Virus record (IMG/VR): IMGVR_UViG_3300036823_000117
Span: 1 to 64,000 of that record
Length of the DNA: 64,000 nt
Reading direction: 5' to 3' (one strand)
DNA from: a virus
Shown: positions 5,641 to 44,491 of the stretch, piece by piece
Layout of the letters: each line of letters begins with the position of its first letter
How positions within the stretch are numbered: position 1 is the first letter of the stretch
Notes under the pieces: model-generated
What the model saw: the letters and a program-made list of their open reading frames with translations, nothing else
What the model was told of the DNA's origin: nothing
Database searches by the model: none
Program-made: the position numbers and the translations under genes

Positions 5641-6501
5641 TCACACGGCGTCCGCGAGTGCGGCTTGAGGGGTTTCGCGGGTCCGGCGGGTGCCGTTGCC
5701 GGCCCGCCACCAGTCCGGGAGCTTCCGGCCGCCGCGGCCAGCGTTGATCGTCTCCGTGGCGGCCGCGGCGACACAGGTCTTGAGGGGCTTGCCGAACTGC
5801 CGCTTCAGGCCGCGGGCCTTCTCCAGGAGCCCGTACGAGCCGCCGGGGGCGACCTGCAGGCCGGCGATGGCGCGGGCGTCGTCGAGGACGGTGCCGTAGC
5901 GCTGCATCATCAGGCCGACGCCGCCGATGACGTGGTGGTCGAGGCCGGCGTAGCCGTAGGAGTCCTTGACGATGACCAGGGTGCGGGCGAGGCATTCCTC
6001 GCCGGCCTTCCTGTAGATCTCCTCAAGGGTCCTGACGGCGGAGATCGCCCCGTCGGACTTGCTGTCCAGCCCGATGCGCATCCCGCAGCTGACGACGATG
6101 TCGTTGATCGCGCATTCCTGGACGCGCCCGGCGGTGACGGCGATCTTGAACTTCTGGTACGCGCCGACTCCGAGGCGGTCGTTGAGCTGGAGGAACAGGT
6201 CGCCTTCCTCAGGCTCCGTCAGGCCCTCGTATGCCTCGCATTCCAGCTGCATGTGGCCCATGCCGCGGATTTCCAGCGCCCGGACCCGGTGCTGGCCGTC
6301 CACGACCATCCACTTCTTGGCGCGGAGGTTCACGGTCGGGTGGCCGAGCTTGTCGGGATCCAGGTTCGCGGCGATCTTGTTGGCGTGCGCGGGGTTGTAG
6401 TCCCGCTGCGCGACCGGTGACACGGCCATGTCGGCGATGGGGATCCACCGCATAGCGGCCCTGCGGGTGATGCGCACGGCGGTATCCTCGAGTGTGGTCA
6501 C
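5641..6501 (-). CDS. DGQHR/ParB-like N-terminal domain protein (DUF6551-like)
   Basis: QRDYN...VVDGQHRVRAL...EEGDLFLQLN. Confidence 0.8.
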   Translation of the reverse strand: MTTLEDTAVRITRRAAMRWIPIADMAVSPVAQRDYNPAHANKIAANLDPDKLGHPTVNLRAKKWMVVDGQHRVRALEIRGMGHMQLECEAYEGLTEPEEGDLFLQLNDRLGVGAYQKFKIAVTAGRVQECAINDIVVSCGMRIGLDSKSDGAISAVRTLEEIYRKAGEECLARTLVIVKDSYGYAGLDHHVIGGVGLMMQRYGTVLDDARAIAGLQVAPGGSYGLLEKARGLKRQFGKPLKTCVAAAATETINAGRGGRKLPDWWRAGNGTRRTRETPQAALADAV

Positions 6502-10105: not shown

Positions 10106-10293
10106 GCCGGCTAGCGGACGTTATTTAGCCTCGCATCGGGAGCAGGCGGGCACATTCCGACAACGCATATCTCAGACCCGCTTGCACCGTCCGCAATGTC
10201 AGTTCACTGTGGGTAGATGGCGGCGCACACTCGGAAGTCGGACGTGCCGTGCCGCAAACACCCCTGACCCCCTCGCCGGAGGAGACAACAAGC

Positions 10294-11115
10294 ATGCCCA
10301 AAACCGACACGTACCCGGTACAGACCACCGGCACGTTAGTCCTCGTCCACATCTCGAAAATCCACCCGAACCAGCGGAACGTCCGCAGCGAGCTCGGCGA
10401 TCTCACCGACCTGGCCGCGTCGGTCAAGTCCCGGGGAGTCGAGGTCCCCCTTATCGCCTACCCGCACCCCGACGACGACGGCCACGTCATCCTCATCGAC
10501 GGGCACCGCCGCTGGGCCGCCGCGGGCATCGCGGGCCTTGAGGAAATCCCCGTCACGCTCCGGGCCGTCCCCGCCCGGGCCGAGGCGGTCAAGCTGATGC
10601 TCGTCACCGGCCTCCACGGCCAGGACCTGTCCCCCATGGACAAGGCCCGCGGGTTCGGTGAACTGGCGGACGCAGGGATGAACGGGCCGCAGATCGCGAA
10701 AGCGATCGGGCAGTCAACCGCGACGGTATCGACCTACCTGACGCTCCTCCATCTCGACGCCGCGTCCCAGAGACGCGTCGATCGCGGCGACGTCTCCGTT
10801 GCCGACGGGGTAGCCGCCGTCCGCGAAACCCGGGCGAAGGAGCGGAAGAGGACCGGGAAGTCCGACCAGCGGGAAACCATGGCCGCCACCTGGGAACCAG
10901 AGCACTTCACCTGGCAGCACCCCCTGGCCCGGAAAGCCGCGAGCTTCTGCGACGCCCGAAGGCACAACGCCCGCCGGCGACTCGGCGGCGCAGCGTGCGG
11001 GGTGTGCTTCGAGGACGCCATCCGGCAGGACGCCAAAGTTGTGCTCCTGACCGAGATGAACCAGCAGGCGGACGTCAAGTTCATGCCGCCGGCACCGCTC
11101 GCGCACACAGGCTGA
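10294..11115 (+). CDS. ParB/RepB/Spo0J family protein
   Basis: IHPNQRNVR, LIDGHRRWAAA, DLSPMDKA, HTH IAKAIGQSTATVS; GGAGG RBS. Confidence 0.88.
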   Translation: MPKTDTYPVQTTGTLVLVHISKIHPNQRNVRSELGDLTDLAASVKSRGVEVPLIAYPHPDDDGHVILIDGHRRWAAAGIAGLEEIPVTLRAVPARAEAVKLMLVTGLHGQDLSPMDKARGFGELADAGMNGPQIAKAIGQSTATVSTYLTLLHLDAASQRRVDRGDVSVADGVAAVRETRAKERKRTGKSDQRETMAATWEPEHFTWQHPLARKAASFCDARRHNARRRLGGAACGVCFEDAIRQDAKVVLLTEMNQQADVKFMPPAPLAHTG

Positions 11116-21818: not shown

Positions 21819-21971
21819 ATGCTGAAGAAAGTCATCACCTGGGGCATCGTCATCTTCGTCATCTACTACCTGGTGAGTAACCCGGGCGGCGCCGCCAACG
21901 TCGTTCATTCGGCGTTCGACGGCATGAAGACCGTCGGCCATTCCTTCTCCGGGTTCTGGACGAGCCTGTAA
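21819..21971 (+). CDS. small membrane protein
   Basis: MLKKVITWGIVIFVIYYLVSNPGGAANVVHSAFDG..; TAATG-coupled to FtsK. Confidence 0.65.
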   Translation: MLKKVITWGIVIFVIYYLVSNPGGAANVVHSAFDGMKTVGHSFSGFWTSL

Positions 21972-23938
21972 TGACCAGCCAGCCGGGAGGAGCCCGCCAC
22001 GCAGCCGCCGAGCACCGCGCCATCCTGGCGCCTGCCGGCTGGATGATCGCGGCGTGGATCTGTGCGAACGCGTTTACCCGCGCTCACGGCAACGACCCGG
22101 TTGAGCTGGCCGTGTTCGCTGATGCAGGCGTCGCGGTGTGGGCGTGGTTCGCCCGCATCCGCCACCTGCCCGCGGCGGCCATGACCGACAGCGGCCGGGA
22201 AGCCCGGCTGCGGCGGTACGCGTGGCGCTGCTATATCGCAGGCGCGATCTGGCTGGCCGCCGCATCCGCCGTGTTCGGCCCGACGTGGTGGATGGACCTT
22301 TTCCTGGTCATCGGCGGCCTGGTCCTCGCATCGCCGCACCTGTACCGCAACCAGATCGACCACTCCGAAGGCCCGAAGGTCATCGCCGGGGTCATCGCTC
22401 CCGCCGGGGAGCAGTCCGCGCCGCCACGCCAGCAGCCGGCCCGGTCGCAGGCACCCCAGCGGCCAGGCACCCCCCGGCAGTACGCCGCCCCGGGTACCAC
22501 GACCCTCCGGCCGGCCGCCAAGCCGCGGCCGCGGCCGACCGCCGACCCGGCCCGCGACGCCATCACCCGCGTGCTCCGCGAGTTCAAGATCGACGCGAAA
22601 GTCACCGGGTGCATCACCGGGCCCGCGGTCCTGCAGTACCAGATGACACCCGGTCCCGGCGTCAAGGTCGAGCGGATCACGCAGCTGACCGCGAACTTCG
22701 CCATGGCCCTCGGTCTCGGCAGATCGTCCGTGCGGATGATCGCCCCGGTGCCCGGCCGGTCCGTCATCGGGCTGGAAATCCCCCGCGCACCCGAGGACCG
22801 GCAGGTCGTCGCCCTCCGCGAAGTCCTTGAGTCCCCGGACATGCTCGCCGACCCCCACCCCCTGACCGTGCCCCTCGGCGTCGACAACGAGGGAAACGTC
22901 GTCACGCACGCCCTGCACAAGGGACCGCACACCCTGATGGCGGGTGCGACCGGCGCGGGCAAGTCGGTCAGCCTCAACGGCGTGATCGTGTCAATCCTGG
23001 TCCGCGCCACCCCGGCCCAGGTCCGGCTCCTGATGATCGACCCGAAGCGCGTCGAGCTCGCCGCTTACTCCGGCGTCCCGCACCTCCTCGGCCCGATCAT
23101 CACCAACCCTGTCGTGGCTGCCCAGCGTCTCGCCTGGGTGTGCGAGCAGATGGAAGCCCGCTACGACGCCATGGCCGCCGCCCACGTCAAGCACATCGAC
23201 GACTACAACAAGATCGACGGAGCCGACCCGTGGCCGTACTGGCTCGTCATCGTCGACGAGCTCGCCGACCTGATGATGGTCAGCAAGCAGAAGGTCAAGG
23301 ACATCGAGGTCCCCGACGTCGAGGACTGCATCGCCCGGATCAGCCAGCTCGCCCGGGCGTGCGGCATCCACCTCCTGCTCGCCACGCAGCGGCCCACCGT
23401 GGACGTCGTAACCGGCCTGATCAAGGCCAACGTCCCGTGCCGGATCGCGTTCGCCGTGGCCAGCCTTACTGACTCGCGGGTCATCCTCGACGCGCCTGGC
23501 GCTGAGCGGCTTAACGGGCAGGGCGACGGGCTGTTCCTCCCGATGGGCGCGAAGGACGCCATCCGCTTCCAGGGCGCCTTTGTCACCGAGGCCGAGATCA
23601 AGCAGGTCGTCGCCGAGTGCGTGGCCCAGGTAGCCCCGCCGTCTGCGCCAGTCCGCGGAAAGGTCATCCCCGCCGCGGTCGAGGCGCCCAGGCCTGAGCT
23701 TGACCCGGAACTGGTGCAGCAGGCCAGAGACCTCGTCGTCGCGACACAGTTCGGGTCGGTGGCGATGATCTCGCGGAAACTCCGCGTCGGCTTCGTCGAG
23801 GCCGGCGCCATCATGGCCGCCCTGGAACTTCAGGGGATCGTCGGGCCCGAGCCGGAAGACAGGTCGAAGGCCAGGGACGTCCTGGTCCGGCCGCAACCCA
23901 CGGAAGCGGCCCCGGCTGCGGAGGAAGAGGACCACTGA
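21971..23938 (+). CDS. FtsK/SpoIIIE DNA translocase (TM, alpha/beta motor, gamma wHTH)
   Basis: GATGAGKS, MIDPKRVEL, VIVDELADLMM, LATQRP, GAERLNGQGD, gamma SRKLRVGF..A. Confidence 0.95.
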   Translation: MTSQPGGARHAAAEHRAILAPAGWMIAAWICANAFTRAHGNDPVELAVFADAGVAVWAWFARIRHLPAAAMTDSGREARLRRYAWRCYIAGAIWLAAASAVFGPTWWMDLFLVIGGLVLASPHLYRNQIDHSEGPKVIAGVIAPAGEQSAPPRQQPARSQAPQRPGTPRQYAAPGTTTLRPAAKPRPRPTADPARDAITRVLREFKIDAKVTGCITGPAVLQYQMTPGPGVKVERITQLTANFAMALGLGRSSVRMIAPVPGRSVIGLEIPRAPEDRQVVALREVLESPDMLADPHPLTVPLGVDNEGNVVTHALHKGPHTLMAGATGAGKSVSLNGVIVSILVRATPAQVRLLMIDPKRVELAAYSGVPHLLGPIITNPVVAAQRLAWVCEQMEARYDAMAAAHVKHIDDYNKIDGADPWPYWLVIVDELADLMMVSKQKVKDIEVPDVEDCIARISQLARACGIHLLLATQRPTVDVVTGLIKANVPCRIAFAVASLTDSRVILDAPGAERLNGQGDGLFLPMGAKDAIRFQGAFVTEAEIKQVVAECVAQVAPPSAPVRGKVIPAAVEAPRPELDPELVQQARDLVVATQFGSVAMISRKLRVGFVEAGAIMAALELQGIVGPEPEDRSKARDVLVRPQPTEAAPAAEEEDH

Positions 23939-39687: not shown

Positions 39688-39885
39688 TTACTTTGTCCCC
39701 TTGCGTGTCGGCTTGCAATGGATCTTGTAACCCTCGGCGTGTGACCCGGTAACCGGTCCGTGCCGCGGTCCTACCTCGGCCAGGCAGTCGGAGCACGTCC
39801 CGTAGTGCAGGTTCACGCCCGGCCCCTTGGCCCGTACGGGCCCGCGTGCCCGCACCCTGGGCTGCGGAGGGTTCATCAAGCTCAT
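39688..39885 (-). CDS. small hypothetical protein
   Basis: First gene of the leftward array; CSDC. Confidence 0.5.
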   Translation of the reverse strand: MSLMNPPQPRVRARGPVRAKGPGVNLHYGTCSDCLAEVGPRHGPVTGSHAEGYKIHCKPTRKGTK

Positions 39886-39952
39886 AGAGGTAAACGTATA
39901 CCTCTACTGTGAGGCAGGCAAGCCGAACCGCCGAACAGGTATACTCAAACTC

Positions 39953-40288
39953 ATGGGCAGGCCAGCGCTACCACACGGACGCCACGTCACCATCAGCGCC
40001 AAAGTCTCCGACGCACAGCTAGCCGCGATAGACGCCGCACGCGGCCAGCTCTCACGCTCCGCATGGCTAGCGTCCGCGGCCGCAGCAGCCGCGCCACCTG
40101 CCGCCGGGCCCGCCGCGAGCTCCACACACACGCCGGCCACCGCGGATAGTCCGGCGCCGGCCGAGGTGAAGCGCACCAGGAAAGCCTCTCAGCCGCCCGC
40201 ACAGGCCGCCACGTGCCCGCACAGGGGACTGCAGCCTGGTGCTTACTGCCGTGCGTGTAAGTCAGTCGTGCCAGGCAAGCCATCGTGA
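39953..40288 (+). CDS. CopG/ribbon-helix-helix protein
   Basis: MGRP......TISAKVS...LAAIDAARGQLSRSAWL; C-terminal CPH...CRAC. Confidence 0.7.
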   Translation: MGRPALPHGRHVTISAKVSDAQLAAIDAARGQLSRSAWLASAAAAAAPPAAGPAASSTHTPATADSPAPAEVKRTRKASQPPAQAATCPHRGLQPGAYCRACKSVVPGKPS

Positions 40289-40662
40289 GGCCTGCACTAC
40301 GGCACGGCAACAGGTAAACGTATACGGATACACCCCAGGTAAAGGTAAACGTAAACCAATACCCGGATACAAGTAAACGTATACAGCAACCGGCGAACAC
40401 ACACTGAGCAAGGGTGACCCCCCGCGCGAAACCAGCGGCCGGCACGACTATGGACGTTGCGCGCGTGCGCGGTTCTACTAGCGGGGATGCTCGGCGGGGA
40501 TGCGCCGGTAAGGCGGCCGGTAAGCGGAGGGTTGCCCTGGCAGTTAGGCGATAACGGACAGCGGCATTGTGTTGGGTAGCTGTGTATTACCGGGCAATCT
40601 CGCGTTTGTGCAGGTCAAGGCTTCGCAGTTTGGCAAAGGCAAGCCATTGATAACGTAATGCA

Positions 40663-40690
40663 GCTTTACCTAAGGTTTATTATCGGCGCG
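40663..40690 (-). other. dif-like XerCD site
   Basis: Minus strand CGCGCCGATAA-TAAACC-TTAGGTAAAGC, 11-6-11 architecture resembling actinobacterial dif as recalled. Confidence 0.7.
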
Positions 40691-41084
40691 ACATTTAAGG
40701 CGCTTCCCGCATTCCCTGCCTTATCACCCACCTGCCCAGCTAGCACATGCCTGGCCATTCCCTCACTGTGCATACCGCAGCGAATGCGGACAGGTCACCT
40801 GGTCACGAGCTGGACATTCCCCCGCATAGGGGAGGGTGCATTCCTCCTATCCCACCCCATCATGCATGTGTGCATATCCACATGGGATCGGACATTGACA
40901 CCAAGCATCAATGCGACATGTCCGGGAATCAGGCCCATCCCACAACGGGGCGTACCCGGACAGGTCCCCACCCCCACATATCCCCCCCCACCCCCCCAAA
41001 CCGGCACGGGGTCACCCCCGGCGTATCCCTCTTGTCTGTGTATCCGATTTCCAAGACCATGTTTCCGTTTTGAGGGGGTTTGCC

Positions 41085-41567
41085 GTGCCGGGTCGTCCGA
41101 GGCGTCGTGTTGGGCCGCCTGCGGTGAGGGGCGGGAATGGTTCGTGGGATCAGTTCGCTCCGGGTAATTCGGCTGCGCTGGTTCACGGGGCTCGGAGCGA
41201 GGCGGTGTTTTCCCCGGTGGCTGAGGCGATCGCGGCGGAGGCGTGCGGGTCGGCGCCGGAGTACTTGTCGGACAGGTCGTTCCGGTTTGCGTTGCGGTCG
41301 TGGGCGGAGGCTGAGGCGCAGCTGCTGTTGTATGAGTCGTGGATGGAGCAGCTGCCGCAGAATGCGCGGTACAGCGCGAAGGGGGCGCAGGCTCCTCCGG
41401 TTGATCAGTGGCGGAAGCTGTCGGCTCATGCTGCGAATCTGCGGAAGCCGCTGGGCCTGGATCCGGTGTCCAGGGTGCGGATCGGGCAGTCGCTGGCCTC
41501 CCAGAACGTGGACCTGGCGCGGCTGGCGATGATGGAGTTCGGTGACGACGGCGAGGCCGAGGATTAG
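41085..41567 (+). CDS. terminase small subunit (putative)
   Basis: FAPGN.AAL.HGARS; LGLDPVSRVRIG; upstream of terL. Confidence 0.75.
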   Translation: MPGRPRRRVGPPAVRGGNGSWDQFAPGNSAALVHGARSEAVFSPVAEAIAAEACGSAPEYLSDRSFRFALRSWAEAEAQLLLYESWMEQLPQNARYSAKGAQAPPVDQWRKLSAHAANLRKPLGLDPVSRVRIGQSLASQNVDLARLAMMEFGDDGEAED

Positions 41568-41896
41568 GGTCTGAGCCAGGCGACGGCGCGGCGCCACCGT
41601 GGGGCCTGCGCGCGGGTGCGCTGTTCGTACGCGGCCTGGTACTCGGCGGTGTGCGTCTGGAGGTAGTCCTCGAGGTGGCGCTGGTCCTCGTCTTCGGGGC
41701 GGCTGTCGAGGAATTCGCGGAGCGCCCGGCCGGTCGTGACGCCGTACCGGCGCTGCAGGTGGCCGCACAGGGTGTCGTCGAGGTAGAACTTCCGGCTTCG
41801 CGCGTAGAGGTTCCGGCGGCCGTCGGGGAGGAACTCGGGGCCGAGGCATCCTGGCTGCCAGCAGTCGGTGACCATGTCCGGGCAGTTGATGCACAT
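41564..41896 (-). CDS. hypothetical protein
   Basis: Antisense operon between terS and terL. Confidence 0.55.
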   Translation of the reverse strand: MCINCPDMVTDCWQPGCLGPEFLPDGRRNLYARSRKFYLDDTLCGHLQRRYGVTTGRALREFLDSRPEDEDQRHLEDYLQTHTAEYQAAYEQRTRAQAPRWRRAVAWLRP

Positions 41897-41899
41897 GGC

Positions 41900-42202
41900 T
41901 TACCTCGGCGCCGTGACGTTGAGGGTGGCTGCGCGGACGGGCATGCGGGTCATCTGCTGGATGCACAGGTCGAGGTCGTCGATGGCGAGGCCGGCGGTGG
42001 CACGGTAATGGCCGGCGTGACGCTCGAGGTCGGCCCAGGTGATCAGGTCCGGGATGCGGGCGCCCATGTCGCGGGCCATCCTGGTCGTGTAGCTGGCGAG
42101 GCGGGCGTCGGCGGTGACGATGGTGAGCTGCTCCGCGGCGGCGTACGCGATGAGCTCGGTGGTCTTGCCCGTGCCCCTGGCACCGGAGATGACGACGTCC
42201 AT
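41900..42202 (-). CDS. minimal P-loop protein
   Basis: VVISGARGTGKTT; LAIDDLD. Confidence 0.65.
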   Translation of the reverse strand: MDVVISGARGTGKTTELIAYAAAEQLTIVTADARLASYTTRMARDMGARIPDLITWADLERHAGHYRATAGLAIDDLDLCIQQMTRMPVRAATLNVTAPR

Positions 42203-42669
42203 CACGCGGCCGGCGCGACGGGGACGGTGACCTCCAGGACGGTTTCCCCGAACCGCCCGGGGGTCGTGGTCTCGCCGGGCAGGGCCAGCATGACGCACCC
42301 GGCGTCCAGGGTGGCGATGGCCAGCTGCTCCCGCGCCCGTTTCCTCGCGTGCTCCAGGACCCCGGCCATCGCCCCGTTCGCGTACTCCGACACGGTCGCG
42401 GTGCACTGCACCGCGCGGGCCCGGGCAATCGCGGCGCCCTCGACAACTTCCATGACGAGGGGGCCGCGGCCCGGGGCCACTTCCAGCCGGAACTCCGGCG
42501 GGCCGCTGAACAGGGACGTGACCGGCTGCTGGTAACTCCGCGGGTAACACGCCGGCTGGTAGCTCACGTCGAACTGCGCGGCGGCCGGGTGGTCGCAGGA
42601 CACCCGGCGGACCATCCCGTCGGAGTACTCCGCGACCACGCAGATCCGGGTCACGTACGCCGTGCTCAT
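42202..42669 (-). CDS. hypothetical protein
   Basis: TGATG-coupled. Confidence 0.55.
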   Translation of the reverse strand: MSTAYVTRICVVAEYSDGMVRRVSCDHPAAAQFDVSYQPACYPRSYQQPVTSLFSGPPEFRLEVAPGRGPLVMEVVEGAAIARARAVQCTATVSEYANGAMAGVLEHARKRAREQLAIATLDAGCVMLALPGETTTPGRFGETVLEVTVPVAPAA

Positions 42670-42947
42670 CAGAGCCGGCCCGGGGCCTGGCACGTCTTGA
42701 GATGCGCCGCGGCTTCCTCGAGCGCGGTCAGCAGCGACTGGAAGCTGATGGTGTACTCCCCGTCAGCGGAGTGCTCCCACGGGGTCATCGCCACCGTCCA
42801 CTCCGTCGCGCAGGGCGCATGCTGAACCCTGGCATCGAGGGCCTCGATTGTGCCCTGCTGCGTTGTCTCCACCGTGTTCTTCTCGGCTCCGAGCGAGAAC
42901 TCGTGCATGAAGGCCAGGGCCAGCTCATTGATCTGCGGCGTTGTCAC
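42669..42947 (-). CDS. hypothetical protein
   Basis: Coupled ORF. Confidence 0.5.
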   Translation of the reverse strand: MTTPQINELALAFMHEFSLGAEKNTVETTQQGTIEALDARVQHAPCATEWTVAMTPWEHSADGEYTISFQSLLTALEEAAAHLKTCQAPGRL

Positions 42948-42979: not shown

Positions 42980-44491
42980 TTGGCGCTTCCCGCCGGCCGT
43001 GAGCTGCTCCGCGCCCTCGCCGACCCGGTCAGGTTCGCCCAGGTGCTGTGCGGCGCCGAGCTGTGGGACCACCAGATCGCCGTGGCCCGGTCGAGCGCAA
43101 GGTACCGGATCATCTGCTCGGGAAGGCAGGCAGGGAAGTCGCGGCTCCTCGCGATCCTGGCGCTTTTCCAGGGTTTCACGAAGCCCGGGTCGCTGACCCT
43201 GGTGGTGTCCGCGGGGGAAACGGCGGCGAAGAGGCTGCTCGAGGAAATCGCTACCCTGGCGTCCGCGGAAATTCTTGCGCCCAGTGTGGTTGAGGACAAC
43301 CAGACAATCCTGGTATTGTCCAATGGGTCGAGGATTATGTCCGTGCCCGCCTCTCAGAAGCAGATCCGAGGCTGGCCCGTTGACCTTTTGATCCTGGATG
43401 AGGCCGGTTTCATCGAGAATGATATCTGGCGTGCGGCCGAGCCGGCGATCATCGCCCGGCCTGGTTCCCGGGTCATCCTGTGCTCCAGCCCCTGGGGCGG
43501 CGTCGAGGCGTTCTTCCGCCAGCTGTGGCAGCGGGGCATGGATTCCCCCGATGCGATGTACGAGTCGTGGCACTGGCCGTCGTCGATCTCGCCGATGGTC
43601 GACGACAAGCTTCTCGAGGAAATCCGCAAGCGGGAAACCGCCGACTACTTCACCCGGGAGTTCCTCGCCGAGTGGCAGGACGAGTACGGCGCGTACCTGA
43701 CCGAGGAGGAAATCTCCTCCGCGGCGGCCGGGTACCGGCTCGCGTCGCCGCAGATGGTGTCCGGGTGGTCGCCGTGGGATCCCTACTCGCAGCGGAAAGA
43801 GCGTCCCTACACTGCGGTGTCCGGCGTCGACTGGGCGTTCTCCAGGGACGCGAACGCCCAGGTGCTCATGGCGGCCCTGGACGACGGGAACCTCAACCCG
43901 GGCGGCGAGCTCCGGTATTTCGTCCCGTGGATGGAATACGCGTACAAGACCCCGTACTCGAAATGGGTCACCACCGTCGCGGACACCGCGAAGGGCTACG
44001 GGCTGCGGGTCGTCGCGTCCGAGGCCAACGGCGTCGGGGCAGCTCCCACCCAGAGCCTCCAGGACGAGATGGGCCGCCGGGCGTCGGGGTGCTTCGTCGC
44101 CGCAGTGTGGACCGACGCGCGGCGGAAGATGTCGGGCTTCGGCCAGATCAAGATGATGCTGCAGCAGGGCCTCCTGGTGCTGCCCCGCGAGCCGGAGCTC
44201 CTCAAGCAGCTCCGCAGCCTGGAGTTCGAGAACCTGCCCGGCGGCGGTGTCCGCATCGCCGTCCCCGAGCGCGCCGGCCACGACGACCTCGCGATGGCGC
44301 TGATGCAGGCCGTGTCGTGCATCCGGCCGACGACCCGCGGCGAAGGCGAGATACCCGACCGCGGCGCCCTGCCCCACGACACCACCGGGTCCGGGGTGAA
44401 GGTCCCGCTGCAGCCCCGCCCGGTGCAGTGGCACTCAATGTCGTACGCCGCCCCGGCGGGCCGGGAACGCGAGCCTGCATCCGCGTGGTGA
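42980..44491 (+). CDS. terminase large subunit
   Basis: GRQAGKS, LLILDEAG, CSSP, REFLAEW, GVDWA, HDDLAMAL. Confidence 0.95.
   Translation: MALPAGRELLRALADPVRFAQVLCGAELWDHQIAVARSSARYRIICSGRQAGKSRLLAILALFQGFTKPGSLTLVVSAGETAAKRLLEEIATLASAEILAPSVVEDNQTILVLSNGSRIMSVPASQKQIRGWPVDLLILDEAGFIENDIWRAAEPAIIARPGSRVILCSSPWGGVEAFFRQLWQRGMDSPDAMYESWHWPSSISPMVDDKLLEEIRKRETADYFTREFLAEWQDEYGAYLTEEEISSAAAGYRLASPQMVSGWSPWDPYSQRKERPYTAVSGVDWAFSRDANAQVLMAALDDGNLNPGGELRYFVPWMEYAYKTPYSKWVTTVADTAKGYGLRVVASEANGVGAAPTQSLQDEMGRRASGCFVAAVWTDARRKMSGFGQIKMMLQQGLLVLPREPELLKQLRSLEFENLPGGGVRIAVPERAGHDDLAMALMQAVSCIRPTTRGEGEIPDRGALPHDTTGSGVKVPLQPRPVQWHSMSYAAPAGREREPASAW

Follow-up and report, generated by a model that had tools for sequence, protein, structure and literature searches.

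The virus record IMGVR_UViG_3300036823_000117 is a single sequence of 118,586 bases from a soil metagenome, classed as linear and 97% complete, with a GC content of ~0.69 and no terminal overlap. We analyzed its first 64 kb (positions 1 to 64,000, hereafter the window), in which a 28-bp element on the minus strand at 40663..40690 is, judging from its letters, very probably a dif-like site of the Xer type. Read from 40690 to 40663, the element comprises an XerC-type arm, CGCGCCGATAA (40690-40680), the centre TAAACC (40679-40674), and an XerD-type arm, TTAGGTAAAGC (40673-40663), exactly as the original prediction had reported it. The site occupies a non-coding region of ~1.2 kb (39886..41084) that lies between leftward small genes and a terS-like gene and also holds a set of short repeats. 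The GC content of 40290-41084 is 0.58, below the record-wide value, and the GC content by codon position is flat in all open reading frames (ORFs) that overlap the site (0.55/0.64/0.61 for 40658-41167). The stretch around the site is therefore non-coding, and the AT-rich, non-coding setting proposed at the outset holds. The same measure gives 0.70/0.53/0.80, with a coding-type GC3, for the terS-like gene. No Pfam or PHROG match falls in 39886-41084, an Rfam scan of the site region returned no family, and a promoter and terminator scan returned no consensus. The ORF at 39956-40288, which by eye resembled a ribbon-helix-helix protein, was rejected for want of a family match and for its flat codon-position GC and is taken as non-coding.

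The repeats are 23 nt long and occur in four plus-strand copies with the core GGTAAACGTA(T/A)AC, at 39885-39907, 40309-40331, 40340-40362, and 40368-40390, as found by a repeat search. The copies are spaced 424, 31, and 28 nt apart, and the first is a near-perfect palindrome. By their sequence they look like iterons or operators. Of the seven copies of the heptamer AGGTAAA in the record, five fall in 39888-40671, one of them inside the XerD-type arm.

The site lies where the packaging module begins, in the only sizeable non-coding region that these genomes have. The terS-like gene (small terminase candidate, 41085..41567, plus strand) begins 395 bp downstream of the site, and the gene for the large terminase subunit TerL (42980..44491, plus strand) lies 2.29 kb downstream, in agreement with the earlier placement of the site next to the packaging region. 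The terS-like product has no match in Pfam, PHROG, or NCBIfam and is named by position and by a resemblance judged by eye; tblastn of its ORF gave 52 matches among 83 related loci, which end just before TerL, and in relatives the gene directly precedes TerL. TerL is of the T4/Mu type with a T4-type N-terminal domain (Pfam Terminase_6N, 1.6e-7; phrog_2, 9e-33) and has 473 homologs at E<=1e-20. Between the two genes, four minus-strand ORFs (41564..42947) were called, one of which matches phrog_1828. In the related loci, tblastn found no counterpart of any of them, and the four look like an insertion into the packaging operon because relatives have terS directly at the start of TerL.

To place the element among known sites, we aligned it with the suggested dif of Frankia alni, CACGCCGATAATGCACATTATGTCAAGT, as given in the available text of the actinobacterial dif predictions of Kono et al. 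2011 (PMC3025954). The ungapped alignment matches at 21 of 28 positions (XerC arm 10/11, centre 3/6, XerD arm 8/11); the next best match in the record reaches 18/28, and 21/28 is attained in one of 300 permutations. With at most one mismatch, the core CCGATAA-N6-TTATGT occurs once in the window and in none of 100 dinucleotide-preserving shuffles, so that pure coincidence is excluded as the source of the match. Among 61 sampled Actinomycetes genomes (three unpublished), 54 contain the core CGATAA-N6-TTATG, mostly once per genome, against 4 hits for a reversed control pattern. A looser pattern was found in 108 of 151 genomes (six unpublished) with 1 control hit.

We also built a position weight matrix (PWM) from 28 of the genomic dif-type sites of Actinomycetes found with CGATAA-N6-TTATG, unpublished genomes excluded; its positions 6-11 and 18-22 are fixed by the pattern used for collecting the sites. 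The element scores 28.5 bits, the next best position in 118,586 bases scores -0.6, and the training sites range from 35 to 51. Over 300 permutations of the record the maximum is 14.5 bits, and none reaches the score of the site. Scoring against an actinobacterial dif matrix had been suggested as a check, and its outcome agrees with a dif-like site of 11-6-11 layout that is unique in the record. The core of the XerC arm (positions 4-11) reads GCCGATAA and agrees at 8/8 positions with the consensus of the 28 genomic sites, in which positions 5-11 are invariant in 28/28 (6-11 being fixed by the pattern) and position 4 is G in 22/28. The XerD-arm core TTATGTCA (positions 18-25) is kept at 6/8 positions in this copy; the nearest site-bearing clade shares the A at position 24, as do 3/28 genomic sites.

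We then turned to related loci and fetched them from bacterial genomes (32 loci), viral contigs (51), and metagenome contigs (80). Removal of duplicates and of loci with too little upstream DNA left 90 distinct loci. Their arms-only PWM scores fall into two groups, 22-37 bits or at most 13.8 bits. In the 1 kb that precedes terS, 18 of the 90 have a dif-type site, whose distance to the extrapolated start of terS is 80-215 bp in every case. Conservation in relatives, another check proposed early on, is thus found in part of the set. The site-bearing loci comprise 11/24 viral and 7/37 metagenome loci (18/61 for the two together) and 0/29 loci in bacterial genomes. For this last figure, clade sampling and selection against an extra chromosomal Xer site are both conceivable. 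The related sites read GCCGATAA (or GCTGATAA, GCCGGTAA), then N6, then TTATGTCA (or TTATGTAA; once TTATGACA; twice ATATGTCA). The XerC arm is the more variable of the two among the phage sites, with CTGATAA in 5/18 and CCGGTAA in 3/18. In one locus (L054) both arms are those of F. alni dif at 22/22 positions and the centre agrees at 2/6. In the nearest site-bearing clade the XerD arm is TTATGTAAAGT, with which that of the element studied here agrees at 9/11 positions. This phage and 14 loci have the site and terS on opposite strands; both are read on the same strand in L040, L045, L285, and L309, the non-duplicate loci of the clade nearest by TerL (a fifth, L315, is a duplicate). By its sequence and position, the 28-mer is the apparent counterpart of a site that some of the related actinobacterial siphoviruses keep directly upstream of terS.

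Across these sites, the arms follow the Actinomycetes genomic consensus and the centres depart from it. Among the 18 sites (that of the window and 17 from relatives), 17 different centres were counted. Positions 15-17 read ACA in 0/17 phage centres vs 21/28 genomic sites (Fisher p=3e-7), and this copy has ACC. T is present at position 12 in 15/17 phage centres, and the XerC-side half of the centre is nearer to the genomic sites than the XerD-side half. L045 and L285 differ at 3/6 centre positions and at 0/22 arm positions; in the flanks, they show 0/43 differences immediately adjacent on the far side and 11/200 on the terS side. The available text of Carnoy and Roten (PMC2731167) describes the centre of chromosomal dif as conserved within species and weakly conserved between them, with an XerD arm that is better kept than the XerC arm. 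We take the sites of the relatives to be working Xer sites because conserved arms around a varying centre are the pattern of a crossover site, not that of a plain operator or an AT-rich unwinding element. Xer recombination requires matching centres. With centres unlike the chromosomal one, the phage sites should not recombine with host dif.

A recombination breakpoint exactly at the site was considered in a flank comparison of 21 loci and rejected, as the conserved packaging side meets the variable far side nearby and not at the site; the break between L045 and L285, for example, lies 43 nt from it. L040 and L315 are 99.7% identical over 600 nt of the right flank, but to the left of the site the 22 bases available for L040 bear no relation to those of L315. 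Given that these are 22 bases and that no other viral contig has the junction, the difference at the arm may mark a true junction there or may be an artefact of the contig end.

The lower-GC clade has its site within a conserved region of ~300 bp. A 25-nt block, aaccgagtcgtgatcgtcgcg, and a ccccgcg block lie 75-130 nt beyond the far side of the site (L046-L065, L298, L347, L359), and in three loci (L047, L049, L065) the interval from the site to terS includes a hairpin whose loop, GGAGCTGATGTCC, is conserved. The blocks and the hairpin may be packaging or late-control elements. The DnaA-box-like sequence TGTGGATAA, on the terS strand, flanks the site on both sides at ~20-75 bp in 7/14 loci (L046, L051, L053, L054, L293, L298, L359), and in the four contigs that were scanned whole (L046, L051, L053, L054) the flanking copies are the only such boxes. 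No TGTGGATAA box lies near the site of the phage studied here.

The stretch itself was found in one soil run, which may be where it came from, and small shares of it occur in eight other runs. In a contig of another run (X4) the flanks can be aligned and 40470-40745, including the site, is swapped for 267 other letters, while a contig of run X3 ceases to align at 40746. No contig from these runs joins the site to foreign DNA.

The original prediction had remarked on the lack of an integrase, which is correct for the 64-kb window but not for the record. Beyond the window, the record encodes a large serine recombinase/integrase (83622-85100; Resolvase and Recombinase domains; phrog_95 integrase, 6e-67) and an Xer-like tyrosine recombinase of 326 aa (87094-88074) with a SAM-like N-domain and a catalytic domain. 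The argument that a missing integrase favors integration at dif fails because the same record encodes both of these enzymes. The Xer-like recombinase matches the XerC and XerD models over its full length, scoring 127 bits against the XerC model, for which the curated cut-off is 335. It belongs to a large, almost exclusively metagenomic family with ~30% identity to proteins labeled XerC or XerD by their source, and its gene begins 46.4 kb from the site. A comparative search for its target yielded only one viral locus, at 47% identity. The second-best dif-type core of the record, CATAA-CTAGCA-TTATG at 86363-86390 (L002 8363-8390), lies ~700 bp before the gene or operon of this recombinase; it overlaps a plausible promoter, TTCACA-N18-CATAAT (by eye), and we make no claim for it as an Xer site. 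The stretch 83622-93319 holds the serine integrase, the Xer-like recombinase, and then 34 tRNA genes on the minus strand (88.5-93.3 kb).

Within the window, the phage does encode the FtsK-like translocase that had been suggested as a partner of the site (21971..23938, plus strand; Pfam FtsK_SpoIIIE 8.7e-51, FtsK_alpha 4.4e-21, FtsK_gamma 4.3e-13). It scores 309 bits with the NCBIfam model of FtsK vs 33 bits with that of plasmid TraB. Its architecture is that of a full cellular FtsK, with a hydrophobic N-terminus (hydropathy peaks at residues 17-35 and 100-120), a P/Q-rich linker, and the alpha, motor, and gamma domains. The FtsK gamma domain activates XerD in E. coli, according to the available text of PMC3130261, and from its gamma domain we infer that the phage FtsK is a possible activator of XerD. 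Two ParB-like genes are present (5641-6501 and 10249-11115), and family searches of this record gave no match to ParA or Rep. Dimer resolution of a plasmid prophage, the other role raised in the original prediction, is conceivable.

Five site-bearing relatives were checked for comparable functions. All four that are at least 92% complete have a tyrosine integrase (380-443 aa) located 14-24 kb from the site; no integrase was found in the fifth, which is 60% complete, and no serine recombinase was found in any of the five. One relative (G003) is a standard temperate siphovirus with Int (412 aa), an excisionase-like protein, WhiB, RusA, and a YqaJ nuclease. G003 and a second relative (G004) have terminal overlaps of 121 and ~210 nt, respectively, and in both, as in the record studied here (G000), phage genes flank the site, which is internal. 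A further relative (G005) is classed as a provirus, with its integrase at the end and the site internal.

Our preferred explanation, to which we assign a probability of roughly 45%, is that the 28-mer is a phage-borne Xer site that acts within one molecule, in multimer resolution or in circle closure of terminally redundant DNA. Host XerC and XerD would bind the site and recombine two copies on one molecule, and these copies would come from circular dimers, from concatemers, or from the terminally redundant ends of headful-packaged DNA. With a packaging start a short way upstream of the site, both ends of the first headful would contain a copy of it; recombination by XerC and XerD would then produce a monomer circle, and dimers would likewise be reduced to monomers. 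A private crossover region would prevent recombination with chromosomal dif, and in the 118.6-kb phage its own FtsK, with the gamma domain, and its Xer-like recombinase may participate. Binding by XerC and XerD, action within one molecule, headful packaging, and a role for FtsK or the recombinase are all steps that we infer. The T4/Mu-type TerL and the assembly of complete relatives as permuted circles are compatible with headful packaging but do not demonstrate it.

A wider and rather doubtful proposal is that temperate actinobacterial siphoviruses delegate genome circularization and monomerization to the dimer-resolution machinery of the host, by way of a site just inside the packaging start. 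The terminal redundancy of the first headful would then include a second copy of the site, and the injected DNA would be closed by Xer recombination, in a host-enzyme equivalent of P1 Cre/lox. In the 118.6-kb member, the gamma domain of the phage's own FtsK would switch XerD on away from the septum.

Several observations weigh against an Xer site that works within one molecule. The site is absent from 72/90 related loci, including all 29 in bacterial genomes, and its spacing from terS differs, at 395 bp here vs 80-215 bp in the relatives. This copy has G at position 21 (TTAGGT), which is found in 0/17 other phage sites and in 0/28 genomic sites, although T is fixed there by the collecting pattern in the latter. 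XerD binding may be weakened because of this deviation, and the arms-only score of 25.7 barely exceeds the lowest genomic value (range 25.6-43). Because the changed base creates AGGTAAA, the core of the nearby repeats, the sequence may be bound by another protein. Integrative phages that package from concatemers also have no clear need for dimer resolution, and G003 has a recombination nuclease of the YqaJ type.

Four other explanations have to be set beside this one. Integration at host dif, which the original prediction had entertained, would make the 28-mer the attP of an element that is inserted by host XerC and XerD in the manner of integrative mobile elements exploiting Xer (IMEX), as in filamentous vibriophages. 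Good arms in a dif-like site would suit such an element, as would the more genomic-like XerC-side half of the phage centres, with its T at position 12, since resemblance on the XerC side is the pattern of some IMEX attP sites; the 22 unrelated bases of L040, next to a right flank nearly identical to that of L315, point the same way. Yet those 22 bases end a contig and recur in no other, the record encodes its own serine integrase and tyrosine recombinase, and the near-complete relatives keep their integrases far from the site, one of them with an excisionase and one classed as a provirus in which the site is internal. No dif-like site was found within 1 kb before terS in any of the 29 bacterial-genome loci (one genome per species), the site is flanked by phage genes in G000, G003, and G004, and the centres are not of the genomic type, all of which renders integration at dif very unlikely. 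Alternatively, the site could be the target of the phage's own Xer-like recombinase, in a self-contained, Cre/lox-like resolution or cyclization, with the odd XerD arm reflecting the specificity of that enzyme. Its Xer architecture, with a full-length match to the XerC and XerD models, its distance from labeled XerC and XerD proteins in a mostly metagenomic family, and the restriction of G at position 21 to this copy would all accord with such a role. We regard it as quite improbable: the gene is 46 kb away, whereas single-recombinase Xer systems are linked to their sites in the available text of PMC2731167; the XerC-type arm fits the host-type consensus exactly at positions 4-11; relatives of 40-47 kb keep the site without such a recombinase (Pfam finds only the 412-aa integrase in G003); and the weak core CATAA-N6-TTATG at 86363-86390 could be its target instead.

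The site could also be bound by XerC/XerD or by another protein without being recombined, as part of a cis-acting control region that heads the packaging operon and serves as an origin, in pac or cos recognition, as an FtsK stop, or in transcription control. The ~300-bp region of the lower-GC clade, with aaccgagtcgtgatcgtcgcg, its hairpin, and TGTGGATAA on both sides of the site in half of 14 loci, has the look of such an element, as do the iteron-like repeats 270-780 bp from the site and the AGGTAAA inside its arm; FtsK, moreover, stops at XerCD-dif, as the available text of PMC2800217 has it. Exactly kept Xer arms around a freely varying 6-bp centre are instead the signature of a crossover site and not of a plain operator, and the region has yielded neither a promoter or terminator consensus nor an Rfam family, so that control without recombination appears unlikely. 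That the copy in this genome is a decaying, non-working relic of an ancestral terS-proximal Xer site (a reading that takes in the negligible chance of coincidence) is also on the unlikely side, if somewhat less so. It would account for the G at an otherwise invariant position 21, the arm scores at the bottom of the genomic range, the greater distance to terS, and the related soil contig in which 267 other letters replace 40470-40745, and the site is evidently dispensable because so many relatives lack it. Decay sits less easily with a 21/28 match that persists with a perfect XerC-arm core and with an XerD arm that still agrees at 9/11 positions with TTATGTAAAGT of the nearest site-bearing clade, and the shuffles exclude coincidence.

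Known Xer sites belong to chromosomes, plasmids, and dif-integrating filamentous phages. The phage site resembles chromosomal dif in its 11-6-11 layout, its identical XerC core GCCGATAA, an XerD arm with 8/11 matches to that of F. alni, and its presence as one copy per replicon. As with chromosomal dif, there is an FtsK with a gamma domain, which here is phage-encoded. Unlike chromosomal dif, it is carried by a phage and lies neither at a chromosomal terminus nor at a global GC-skew extreme (the cumulative extremes are at ~14-17 kb and 93 kb, with only a local minimum at 41 kb, and the meaning of skew is uncertain in a phage genome), its centre has ACC in place of ACA, and position 21 is G. 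ColE1 cer and pSC101 psi are Xer sites of plasmids. The pdif sites of Acinetobacter are also described as plasmid Xer sites in the text available on them. The phage sites share with cer, psi, and pdif a crossover region of their own on a mobile replicon, the presumable use of host enzymes, and an XerC arm that is more variable than the XerD arm. They differ from the plasmid sites in having no recognizable accessory-protein region, in belonging to tailed phages with integrase genes, and in their fixed place before terS.

In phage P1, loxP and Cre provide a recombination site near pac, and its closeness to the headful start allows redundant DNA to be closed and dimers to be resolved. The site described here would likewise be a recombination site near a presumed headful packaging start, but its recombinases would be host XerC and XerD, it is of the dif-type 11-6-11 layout, and no recombinase gene adjoins it. 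IMEX elements are CTX-phi-type phages that integrate at dif by Xer recombination, as far as the available text of PMC12715192 and general knowledge describe them. They too have a phage genome that carries a dif-like site, whereas the phages considered here are tailed and have their own integrases, their site is internal in all assemblies, and no dif-integrated copy was found. Like the XerS/difSL and XerH/difH systems, this phage has a single Xer-like recombinase gene. Linkage of gene and site is a feature of those systems, according to the available text of PMC2731167; here the gene is 46 kb off, and the site has two different arms of the XerC and XerD types.

Our literature search, in which coverage was incomplete and few subscription journals were included, found no account of Xer sites before terS in tailed actinophages. 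A canonical XerC/XerD site in a fixed place before terS in integrase-bearing tailed phages would mean that the host machinery is put to a new use. A working site would offer a testable route to circularization and to the monomer state in hosts with slow homologous recombination, and a reason for the phage-borne FtsK genes that are common in actinophages and have no assigned role. In practice, the site provides a simple sequence marker by which the start of the packaging module can be recognized, and actinomycete genetics could draw on the variable centres for orthogonal recombination sites.

Relatives of TerL number in the hundreds and come from metagenomes and from prophages of Nonomuraea, Streptosporangium, Pseudonocardia, Arthrobacter, and others. 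The closest homologs overall are 85-99% identical, and the closest named ones, from Nonomuraea and Streptosporangium, are 57-61% identical. Among cultured phages, megablast of 39800-41600 found no close relative and tblastn of TerL found less than 30% identity; a single-protein scan of viral contigs also found no close relative. Nonomuraea or Streptosporangium was considered as the host on account of the closest named TerL and set aside, as the arms of Nonomuraea dif differ from those of the phage site. The Nonomuraea dif centre is TGAACA, which the phage centre matches at 4/6 positions, and the XerC arms match at 5/11, in a genus that may not be the host. Two Nonomuraea genomes (L261, L263) contain, besides the chromosomal dif TTGCTTGATAA TGAACA TTATGTCAAGT, a second Xer-type site with the centre AGATCC and conserved flanks. 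No protein of the phage studied here has a match within 1.5 kb of this second site.

At least 120 viral contigs of IMG/VR (L093-L212) contain an exact match to GCCGATAA-N6-TTATGTCA, and among the matches listed only 4 carry the TerL family of this phage, so dif-type sites are common across records of actinobacterial viruses. Some of the IMG/VR sites that have genomic-type centres may be host flanks of proviruses. In three loci from different assemblies (L324, L325, L326), the TerL match ends at residue 189, and 86 bp further on lies the dif-like sequence AGCGCCGATTA GGAATT TTATGTAAAGT (L324 5632). Extra dif-type cores are also present on secondary contigs of actinomycete genomes. A family of Bifidobacterium phages, among them BP742P1 (OP172705.1; L259 6500-7236), together with matching IMG/VR contigs of 18-34 kb (L101, L106, L112, L135, L142, L164, L179, L203), contains two identical, inverted dif-type sites that are 709-811 bp apart, a layout reminiscent of an invertible segment or of the dif modules on Acinetobacter plasmids.

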